DNA of 64,000 nucleotides, from IMG/VR virus record IMGVR_UViG_3300028364_000013, one strand, 5' to 3'. The stretch comes from a virus. Taxonomy: Duplodnaviria; Caudoviricetes. The notes beneath the pieces are model-generated. The model was not told the origin of the DNA and searched no databases. It was given only the letters and a program-made list of their open reading frames with translations. The translations under genes were made by a program, and so were the position numbers. Positions 3,674 through 5,385 of the stretch are shown piece by piece (position 1 is the first letter of the stretch; the number at the start of each line of letters is the position of its first letter).

Positions 3674-4102
3674 TTATGATGCTGTTTTTTTAATGTTATT
3701 AATATGAAAATTACTAACAGGGTCTTCTTTTATTCCTTGAGAATCAACCCACTGTTCGTAGTATTCTTTTTGAGCAAGACGTAAGCTACCTGTTAACCTA
3801 CGAGCTTGGTCGCATGCTTCAATAGCCATAGATGTTGCTTTATGATTTAAGTCTGGTTCACGAAATACAGAAACACACACTCCTCTTTGTCGAAGTTTTT
3901 CAACAAGAGACAATAAAGACTCTTCGTCTTCAATTGATAAACATGCTACGTATTGTGAATTTTCGTACCATTCCTTAAATTGGTCTGGATACTCGACTGC
4001 AAATTGAGACATTGCATGAGCCGATTGCGCAATTTGAGCTCCAGGATGCAAATCTCTTGTAACAACTATTCTAAGTTTTTCATTATTTTTTACCTATTTC
4101 AT
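3674..4102 (-). CDS. PTH2-family peptidyl-tRNA hydrolase-like protein with in-frame TAG at codon 3
   Basis: ATG(4102) AAA TAG GTA AAA AAT AAT GAA AAA CTT AGA = MK*VKNNEKLRIVVTRDLHPGAQIAQSAHA...FREPDL; PTH2 signature IVVxxDL...AQxxHA. Confidence 0.75.
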
Positions 4103-4138
4103 ATCTAAGTTATTTTTAATTATTTTGGTGTTTATTTT

Positions 4139-4165
4139 TATACGTAAAAATTTATAAAATGTTTC
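4139..4165 (-). promoter_or_regulatory. AACATT-N13-CGTATA bipartite promoter motif
   Basis: Minus strand GAAACATTTTATAAATTTTTACGTATA, 37 nt upstream of the PTH2 ATG; six copies in the window. Confidence 0.7.
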
Positions 4166-4170
4166 TATAA

Positions 4171-5283
4171 TTATAAACTTTCTATTAATTGACTCATTTT
4201 CTTTAACAAATCTTCATTATATGCAATTCTTAATAATTTAATTTCACTTTTACTACAGTAATCAGTTTTAATGCTATCGTTTATTTGCGTTAATTCCAAT
4301 GCTTTTTCTCCCCCAAAATAATCAATAGACTTAAAATGTTGCCTACCATCAAATTCAATACAAATATTGTAATCAGGCAAGTAAAAATCAAATGGTAACT
4401 CCATTATATTCCTACATTCTTTAAATTTCTTCTGCCTTTCAAATTTTATTAAATTTTCTTTTAATAATTTTGAAATCCTTTTTTCTCCCTTTGACTCATT
4501 GCAATGTGGACAACCAATACCTCTAATGTGATGTGTTGGCACCTGCTCAAATTCATCGTGAACTGGGCAAATTATTTTTATTTTTGTTTTAGAGTTAATA
4601 TATTTAACAAAAGAATAATCATATTTATTCTCATGAATCAAATGTGACTCCATTATAAAATATTCTTGTGATTTTTTAAGCTTATCAGCACGCTCTATTA
4701 TAGCGCATTTATTACAACCACGCCCAGATAAATGGTCATGAGGAGTTTGTTGAAATTGTCCATGATTTGGACAAATTATTACAATTGGTTTTTTTGAATT
4801 GTTATATTCCGTAAAAGAGTAATCATATTTATTTGAATGGACACTTTGAGCTCTTACTTTGAAATCTTCGAGAGTTAACTTCATTCTATCATTCCCACAC
4901 GATGGACAACCCCTATTAGATAGGTGATTCAAAGGCATTTGATTAAATTCTCCATGATTTTGACAAATTATTGTAACTGGAGTTTTATAATTCTTATAAT
5001 TTACTTTGCTATAATTGTAGCAATCACCATGAATTGATATTGCTTTTTTTACAAATTCTTCTTTTGATAAGGATTGTTTGTATGATTTTTTTAAGTTTCC
5101 ACAACCTGGACAACCAACCCCATTAGCGTGATGAAAAGGCAATTGATTAAACACTCCATGAACTGGACATTTTATATCTATTTTAGTTCTTGCATTTTTA
5201 TATTCTACAAGACTATAATCGTAAAAATTATTATGAATTTTTTGCGCCTTTTTAATGAAGATGTTTTTGTTTTTTTCTTTCAT
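4171..5283 (-). CDS. Putative homing endonuclease: four YDYS..CPxHG..GC zinc-ribbon repeats + PD-(D/E)XK nuclease
   Basis: Repeats F..A...H.N.YDYS.V.Y.N..TK..I.CP.HG.F.Q.P..H..G.GC; C-terminal PFDFYLPDYNICIEFDGRQH. Confidence 0.75.
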   Translation of the reverse strand: MKEKNKNIFIKKAQKIHNNFYDYSLVEYKNARTKIDIKCPVHGVFNQLPFHHANGVGCPGCGNLKKSYKQSLSKEEFVKKAISIHGDCYNYSKVNYKNYKTPVTIICQNHGEFNQMPLNHLSNRGCPSCGNDRMKLTLEDFKVRAQSVHSNKYDYSFTEYNNSKKPIVIICPNHGQFQQTPHDHLSGRGCNKCAIIERADKLKKSQEYFIMESHLIHENKYDYSFVKYINSKTKIKIICPVHDEFEQVPTHHIRGIGCPHCNESKGEKRISKLLKENLIKFERQKKFKECRNIMELPFDFYLPDYNICIEFDGRQHFKSIDYFGGEKALELTQINDSIKTDYCSKSEIKLLRIAYNEDLLKKMSQLIESL

Positions 5284-5385
5284 ACTAATAAGTAGTAAAA
5301 AATTTTCAACAAGTTGTGCGCCAGGATGAATATCACGTATTGTGACTATTCTTAATTTTGAATTATTAATCTATAAGTTTTTCAT
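5284..5385 (-). pseudogene. Duplicated 5' end of the PTH2-like gene, in frame with the endonuclease, with TAG at codon 5
   Basis: ATG(5385) gives MKNL*INNSKLRIVTIRDIHPGAQLV-ENFLLLIS-M(5283); TAG at 5371-5373. Confidence 0.75.

Follow-up and report, generated by a model that had tools for sequence, protein, structure and literature searches.

In a tailed phage recorded in IMG/VR as IMGVR_UViG_3300028364_000013, a gene for a protein resembling the peptidyl-tRNA hydrolase Pth2 opens with a start codon and a few sense codons that run into an in-frame TAG, and a transfer RNA (tRNA) gene with the matching anticodon, tRNA(CUA), is located nearby. The stretch analysed, referred to here as the window, is 64,000 nucleotides (64 kb) of an AT-rich (34% G+C) phage contig that encodes a ribonucleotide reductase, a ClpB-like ATPase, giant open reading frames (ORFs) and several homing endonuclease genes. 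Comparison with relatives indicates that the TAG is ancestral and maintained. It is probable, in our judgement, that translation of the Pth2-like gene and of a neighbouring methyltransferase gene is gated by the suppressor tRNA, and that a homing cassette which entered the Pth2-like gene carries a substitute 5' end that restores it.

In the proposed mechanism, the Pth2-like gene, tRNA genes including that for tRNA(CUA) and a small methyltransferase gene form a phage operon, in which full translation of both protein genes would require decoding of an early in-frame UAG, placed after an opening of two to four codons in the first and at codon 17 in the second. Ribosomes leaving the short opening would halt at the UAG unless the phage tRNA(CUA) decodes it. 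Both enzymes would thus be made only after the tRNA has been expressed, processed and charged, with an output proportional to the tRNA, and the stop would act as a gate or meter of suppression. A cassette of the DUF723/Vsr type would have homed just past the codons for the motif HPGAQ, so that the nuclease ORF now follows, in frame, the promoter and gated 5' end of the recipient, and the diverged and equally gated 5' end of the cassette restores Pth2 on the other side. Decoding by the suppressor, the amino acid inserted, protection of the surrogate 5' end against cutting through its diverged sequence and any role of the fused nuclease are the parts of this scheme that we infer from sequence.

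The two 5' ends are on the minus strand, on either side of an endonuclease gene, and their peptides and coordinates are exactly those of the original prediction, which had been made from the window alone. The resident 5' end (5310..5385) consists of ATG (5385-5383), three codons (AAA AAC TTA), TAG (5373-5371) and 19 sense codons through HPGAQ (Gln at 5316-5314), with the junction after CTTG at 5310. It is preceded by a promoter of the Bacteroidota type (5420..5460, minus strand; TTTG at 5458-5455 and TATATTTG at 5433-5426), contiguous with a native gene for a small membrane protein upstream of the locus (5791-5519, minus strand). The left end of the cassette forms an open linker of 26 nucleotides (5284..5309, minus strand) to the ATG of the homing endonuclease gene (4171..5283, minus strand; 370 amino acids). 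After the nuclease gene come 68 nucleotides of a degenerate copy of the Pth2 promoter region (4103..4170, minus strand) and the surrogate 5' end (4030..4102, minus strand), which reads ATG (4102-4100), AAA, TAG (4096-4094) and 20 codons through HPGAQ (Gln at 4036-4034), with the junction after ATTG at 4030. The body of the Pth2-like gene follows (3674..4029, minus strand), its DNA 90-93% identical to that of loci L021, L023 and L029 (relatives are designated by L numbers). Each copy had been assigned a promoter of the form AACATT..CGTATA; the stretch is indeed present twice, in good form upstream, but the downstream one (about 4166-4139) is degenerate, and an exact match to the full motif is found at a single place in the window.

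Read through its TAG, the downstream gene matches Pfam family PF01981 (E = 5.6e-10, 39.9 bits against a cutoff of 23), with residues 9-109 aligned to positions 2-114 of the 115-position profile, and a profile match to the solved archaeal Pth2 structure PDB 2zv3 is also obtained (E = 1.7e-6). Both the Pfam and the PDB alignments begin at residue 9, ahead of the first ATG, GTG or TTG past the TAG, which is codon 18 and is situated within the conserved RDL-HPG segment; the whole domain is therefore out of reach of any canonical start. Such whole-domain and structure-profile matches are what the phage protein shares with archaeal and eukaryotic Pth2 (PDB 2zv3, 1wn2 and 1q7s), from which it differs by a GKGK loop that is two residues shorter and lacks lysine, and by a conserved carboxy-terminal tail of about 30 extra residues. 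In archaeal Pth2, a Lys in the GKGK loop and an Asp in the DAG motif are catalytic; the latter aligns with the invariant Glu82 of the phage protein in the profile alignment to 2zv3. From its sequence the protein is Pth2-like, with hydrolase activity as a prediction only. An AlphaFold model of it, built from 11 sequences, had a predicted local distance difference test (pLDDT) value of just 62.8 and an unreliable amino-terminus, and it was discarded.

For about 100 loci, the conserved core was located and the sequence was walked upstream in frame. A scan of viral contigs with a Pth2 alignment returned relatives of at most 43% identity, and the close alleles were obtained from a metagenome scan and from look-ups of exact proteins. 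A 5' end was called strictly gated when an ATG and a short opening lead to a stop and no ATG, GTG or TTG occurs between that stop and the core. This applies to 29 of the 66 distinct Pth2 5' ends, the stop being TAG in 27, TAA in one and TGA in one. The opening between ATG and stop comprises one to four codons (nine in one case), with lengths that differ by whole codons. Five further 5' ends, and that of mycobacteriophage Bxz1, would count as gated too if a GTG or ATG within the core, or adjoining it, were disregarded. Members of the gated set have protein identities as low as about 36%, some of them being on contigs of 88-518 kb; distant Pth2-like genes (at most 35% identity, mostly from gut phages) have ordinary starts. 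In the close family, every endonuclease-free allele (more than 15 distinct sequences) has its TAG in the corresponding position.

The segment between the TAG and HPGAQ evolves as coding sequence, with diversities of 0.22, 0.13 and 0.42 at codon positions 1, 2 and 3 among 23 distinct sequences. In all 29 strictly gated ends the base after the stop is a purine (A or G), which, from work by Bossi in 1983 and by Miller and Albertini in 1983, is reportedly a context favouring amber suppression. The glutamine that database homologues show at the TAG column was rejected as a clue to the inserted amino acid; in the DNA it is TAG, read as Gln by the gene caller. In Bxz1 (NC_004687.1; L087, 1810-2570), gp154 matches the Pth2 family of Pfam, ATG TAG directly precedes its annotated GTG start, and a CUA tRNA annotated as 'tRNA-OTHER' follows the gene. 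A 'peptidyl tRNA hydrolase' is annotated in about 200 Bxz1-type (cluster-C) mycobacteriophages, and the gene is also present in Lak phages. With the TAG shared, far beyond what chance would give, by all free alleles and by relatives down to about 36% identity, these comparisons mark the stop as ancestral and maintained, as had been predicted; it is not an error, and the alternative of two independent nonsense mutations fails.

In relatives, the gene order is Pth2, tRNA-Ile(GAU) and tRNA(CUA), with 8-170 nucleotides between Pth2 and the suppressor and 4-5 nucleotides between the two tRNAs. The window has, directly after Pth2, a tRNA-Ile(GAU)-like gene with a 9-nucleotide anticodon loop (3574..3649, minus strand; 43 bits with the Rfam tRNA model, no ARAGORN call) at the position of the tRNA-Ile(GAU) of its relatives. 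Its amber suppressor tRNA gene, with anticodon CUA (2686..2758, minus strand; called by ARAGORN, 63.2 bits with Rfam), is 919 nucleotides from Pth2, because a second homing endonuclease gene of the Vsr type (2815..3516, plus strand; PHROG 559, 3339 and 9084), itself ending in TAG, has come to lie between it and the tRNA-Ile-like gene. A suppressor of matching anticodon is found at 17 of the 29 strictly gated loci (16 TAG gates with CUA, and the one TGA gate, L093, with tRNA(UCA)); none of the 29 has only a mismatched suppressor. The 12 gated loci without a suppressor are mostly on contigs shorter than 4 kb, and the single TAA case is on a contig too short for a verdict on the pairing. Acceptor-stem changes among orthologous suppressor genes include compensatory ones. 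The nearest database tRNAs are other phage CUA tRNAs and give no clue to the amino acid that the suppressor carries.

Two candidate observations on the tRNAs were rejected. Pyrrolysine is suggested only by the label 'Pyl', which ARAGORN gives to any CUA tRNA; no other sign of it was noticed, though pyl genes were not searched for. The apparent covariation in L069, a TAA followed by tRNA(UUA), turned out to be an ordinary Shine-Dalgarno sequence with a GTG start.

Several features of the tRNA cluster stand by themselves. Two distinct sequence families of tRNA(CUA) occupy the same position after Pth2, one in L017, L020, L021, L081 and L083, the other in the window, L024, L027, L030, L031, L035 and L084, which suggests replacement of the suppressor gene at the locus. 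Distant Pth2-like genes with ordinary starts (L094-L100, L010, L065-L068, L075 and L101) adjoin suppressors with UUA (on contigs of 330-550 kb) or UCA (on the others), so the linkage between gene and tRNA is wider than the gate. A tRNA-shaped gene at 2552-2628 (minus strand), called tRNA-Lys(CUU) by ARAGORN, has an anticodon stem of 6 base pairs, the loop AUCUUCG and a pyrimidine at position 37, and may be a tRNA mimic rather than a decoder; a similar element with a GAAA loop adjoins the suppressor in L017 and L020. Between 2148 and 2550 (minus strand) there is a tRNA match with an 83-nucleotide insertion in the anticodon region (2295-2148, 41.5 bits with Rfam), next to 250 nucleotides that include two T-arm-like pieces of sequence GGTTCGAATCC and, at E = 0.7, a weak YrlA-like match.

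The second amber-containing gene of the cluster encodes the catalytic domain of an N6-adenine-type methyltransferase (1622..2131, minus strand) and is located at the end of the cluster away from Pth2. Its TAG is codon 17 (2083-2081), a position shared by the window and the other close loci, 13 in total with 11 distinct 5' segments. Ahead of the TAG, 16 codons are conserved in a coding pattern (0.085, 0.034 and 0.247 at positions 1, 2 and 3), and homologues of as little as 40% identity retain them and have a sense codon at the TAG column. As that sense codon stands for Lys, Asn, Glu, Gln, Thr, Ser or Asp, the column is uninformative about the amino acid of the suppressor. The codon after the TAG is GTT, ATT or ATA in eight of the 11 distinct sequences. 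In an AlphaFold model (pLDDT 90.5), the TAG falls inside a helix spanning residues 9-19, and the closest fold is the catalytic domain of the N6-adenine methyltransferase M.TaqI (template modelling score, TM-score, 0.76-0.80), with TrmN, the enzyme for N6-methyladenosine at tRNA position 37 (m6A37), among the matches. A restart past the TAG would, according to this model, remove part of the fold, which provides an argument for readthrough that is independent of Pth2. With a second gated gene in the operon, the tRNA may have a small regulon, more than one gene, under its control. A more tentative extension, to which we give about one chance in four, is a closed circuit: the suppressor tRNA would license two enzymes, the Pth2-like hydrolase and the methyltransferase, that act on this tRNA or on the products of suppression and together set the level of readthrough during infection. 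The endonuclease would have evolved to exploit the gate, its own synthesis being confined to times of active suppression, and would bring a spare gated start by which the interrupted gene survives.

Some observations do not favour gating by the suppressor. Among the 72 ORFs of at least 100 amino acids in the window, 54 end in TAA and nine in TAG, so suppression would have to be partial or tolerated. The stretches fetched for three gated loci, L008 (8.3 kb of a 518-kb contig), L062 and L102, contain no suppressor. Read from its sequence, the tRNA(CUA) of the window mismatches A31 with C39 and pairs G with U in the T stem. For the archaeal catalytic Lys, the profile alignment to 2zv3 offers a two-residue gap or an Ala, and without conservation of the GKGK lysine the substrate of the enzyme is uncertain. 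Finally, the codon after the Pth2 stop is ATT in 14 and ATA in two of the 29 strictly gated ends and GTG in Bxz1, all of which are possible restart codons.

This last point is the basis of the main rival, termination followed by reinitiation, which we regard as improbable. The mini-ORF would end at the TAG and the same ribosome would restart at the very next codon (ATT, ATA or GTN), giving a start-stop type of regulator that needs no suppressor. Restarting at the adjacent codon would preserve the frame, a next codon of ATT or ATA is available in 16 of the 29 ends, and in Bxz1 the sequence is ATG TAG GTG, with the gene annotated from the GTG. The other 13 ends, however, continue with GTA, GTT, GGA, ACT or AAC, all poor restart codons. 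Reinitiation also leaves the choice of stop unexplained, TAG being used in 27 of 29 ends though the genomes favour TAA (54 of the 72 long ORFs of the window), and a suppressor tRNA that matches the stop adjoins the gene. In the methyltransferase, restarting would discard 16 conserved codons that belong to the fold.

A whole-genome reassignment of TAG (code 15), as in crAss-like and Lak phages, would also account for a phage tRNA(CUA), and the public gene caller did take the short relatives to read TAG as Gln. Credible in-frame TAG codons are nevertheless confined, in 81 kb of genome, to Pth2, the nuclease fusion and the methyltransferase, and TAG is the terminal codon of the nine long ORFs counted above, which makes a general reassignment very unlikely. 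Other candidates for in-frame TAG (window positions 51912-52478, 54017-55201 and 13976-14389; genome positions 174-2204, a patatin-like gene) were rejected, as they are explained by ordinary starts past the TAG or by gene overlap.

Suppressor-dependent gating remains the preferred reading, and the cassette contributes to it separately. The nuclease ORF matches Pfam DUF723 (E = 2.6e-15) and, among PHROG families, 559 and 9084 (labelled 'HNH/homing endonuclease') as well as 7140; it has four zinc modules of the DUF723/CapR type and a nuclease carboxy-terminus termed Vsr-like after the source annotations. Relatives of the nuclease (72-75% amino acid identity) occur at the identical junction in four other backgrounds (L081/82, L083, L084 and L085/86), so that five backgrounds have the insert at one junction and more than 15 close alleles are free of it. 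Its limits in the window are 5309 and 4030, and both junctions show a repeat of TTG.

Both 5' ends were aligned with 14 alleles and identity was measured by segment. The upstream coding piece of the window is 90-92% identical to the free 'MKNL-TAG' alleles L019 and L023, and its promoter is 84-94% identical to those of free alleles. Across cassette carriers, the upstream pieces fall into the classes 'MKK-TAG', 'MK-TAG' and 'MKNL-TAG', each 89-99% identical to some free allele. The cassette-borne 5' pieces are 89-96% identical to one another (89-93% for that of the window against L081, L083 and L084) and 64-75% identical to free alleles. For the window, the stretch from the nuclease stop to HPGAQ reaches just 61-75% in the coding part and 38-54% in the promoter against any free allele. 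Upstream pieces that vary by class, combined with downstream pieces that are alike, identify on sequence evidence a mobile cassette that homed into the HPGAQ-coding site of different alleles, leaving the 5' end of the recipient and bringing its own.

The original prediction had instead seen one 5' end duplicated and then diverged in place, and a tandem duplication caused by the insertion would indeed leave two copies, about 64% identical to each other, on either side of the insert. The affinities of the copies make this highly improbable. The upstream copy goes with one class of free alleles and the downstream copy with the cassette copies of three other phages, whose own upstream copies belong to other allele classes; moreover, the gene body is 90-93% identical to that of relatives and the surrogate 5' piece only 61-70%. 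The downstream copy is therefore better described as a separate allele that travels with the endonuclease. The same distinction bears on the claim that a TAG in both copies is internal evidence for its function. The upstream copy belonged to the recipient and stayed in place on homing; its TAG is merely inherited and adds nothing, but the claim holds for the cassette-borne copy. ATG-AAR-TAG is kept in all four cassette-borne copies, although the nuclease of the window is only 72-75% identical to the other three, which is, at the level of sequence comparison, independent evidence for selection on the stop. A decaying pseudogene or an assembly error, which a stop at codon 3 would resemble in being like a null allele, can be put aside with near certainty, the same stop being present in 27 distinct sequences from many samples and the gene in about 200 cultured Bxz1-type mycobacteriophage genomes (the stop was checked in Bxz1 only), with coding-pattern selection on the sequence downstream.

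Next to the junction, 13 of 33 bases differ, by eye, between free and cassette-borne alleles, a divergence that could protect the surrogate allele from the nuclease. In three other carriers, the degenerate promoter is replaced by an ORF of 93 amino acids without a family match (L081:4116-4397, L083:4116-4397 and L084:2609-2890). It ends at the TAG that gates Pth2 and is in the same frame, so that a protein joining this ORF to Pth2 would result from readthrough.

The resident piece and the nuclease share one frame, as predicted, with the TAG as the only stop, and the frame is kept in the four other cassette genomes through a conserved, stop-free linker, which has neither indels nor stops in L081, L083, L084 and L085. 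Readthrough of the resident TAG would give a nuclease with an extension of 34 residues. Two considerations argue against reading much into this fusion. The linker travels with the cassette, so the in-frame link counts as one event and not as five, and an open in-frame link is expected by chance in about one insertion in six. Few linker bases vary among the cassettes, and the changes inspected by eye are amino acid replacements; in so short a linker they give no verdict on translation. Use of the fusion is possible but less likely than not.

Early in-frame stops in translation-related genes have a well-known precedent in prfB, where an early UGA and a +1 frameshift sense release factor 2, the product of the gene. 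The gated Pth2 would be alike in that synthesis hangs on the decoding of the stop and the output reports the state of termination or suppression, with the difference that here the frame is kept and the presumed decoder is a tRNA. The bar minigenes of phage lambda, ORFs of two to four codons and a stop, shed peptidyl-tRNA and make cells depend on peptidyl-tRNA hydrolase; the Pth2 opening resembles them as a short ORF with a stop, but it is in frame with a hydrolase-like gene. For the cassette, the nearest phage parallels are free-standing homing endonucleases such as the seg and mob genes of T4, which engage in intronless homing.

In fungal mitochondria, endonuclease ORFs are flanked by partial duplications of the 3' ends of atp6 or cob (PMC6279837). 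The present cassette shares with the T4 and fungal cases the presence or absence of a nuclease at one site, donor-type flanks, a partial copy of the target beside the insert and retention of a complete gene. It differs from the fungal ones, where the 3' end is involved, in bringing a 5' end with a gate and in placing the nuclease in frame behind the resident gate. Our literature search found no phage case of an endonuclease cassette with a surrogate 5' end of its target gene, in frame behind the resident start; as far as we found, this mode of insertion is unreported in phages.

Stop-codon-recoded phages with their own suppressor tRNAs, such as the crAss-like and Lak phages that read TAG as Gln under code 15, have been described (bioRxiv 10.1101/2021.08.26.457843; PMC9523058). 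Like the phage studied here, they encode a tRNA(CUA) and have genes with in-frame TAG, and suppression has been proposed as a means of timing protein synthesis; the genome of the window, by contrast, otherwise uses TAG as a stop and has it very early, in just two small genes beside the tRNA. In the text of the main recoding paper, neither 'peptidyl' nor 'hydrolase' occurs. Standard-code jumbo phages with orphan suppressor tRNAs include XacN1 (PMC5852040) and Atu_ph07 (PMC6102473), which have CUA or UCA tRNAs and a peptidyl-tRNA hydrolase gene. The authors of the XacN1 study considered readthrough of stops at the ends of ORFs and found no target gene for the CUA tRNAs (PMC5852040). Compared with these two phages by their published descriptions, the target proposed here is a stop met early, where the Pth2-like gene begins. 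A literature search combining Pth2 or peptidyl-tRNA hydrolase with suppressor tRNA and phage yielded genome descriptions and reviews only, and no paper on this arrangement.

Many large phages of standard code carry suppressor tRNAs without a known target, and an early stop in the adjacent Pth2-like gene would offer a concrete natural substrate. The gate would be a directly testable switch, also in a cultured system, since Bxz1 and about 200 related phages of Mycobacterium smegmatis have the gene. The selfish cassette amounts to a natural experiment, in which a diverged 5' allele still keeps ATG-AAR-TAG, and this argues for a functional stop. Should it be confirmed, the gate would provide a compact natural element for placing expression under the control of a suppressor tRNA.

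Upstream of the Pth2 operon, an adjacent pair of NT5C-type 5'-nucleotidase genes (5761-6288 and 6292-6861, both on the minus strand) is present, and the pairing is kept in L020, L081 and L083. Beyond this pair, a homing endonuclease gene of the GIY-YIG/NUMOD3 type (6957-7670, plus strand) ends in TAG, within the same 5 kb as the Vsr-type gene.

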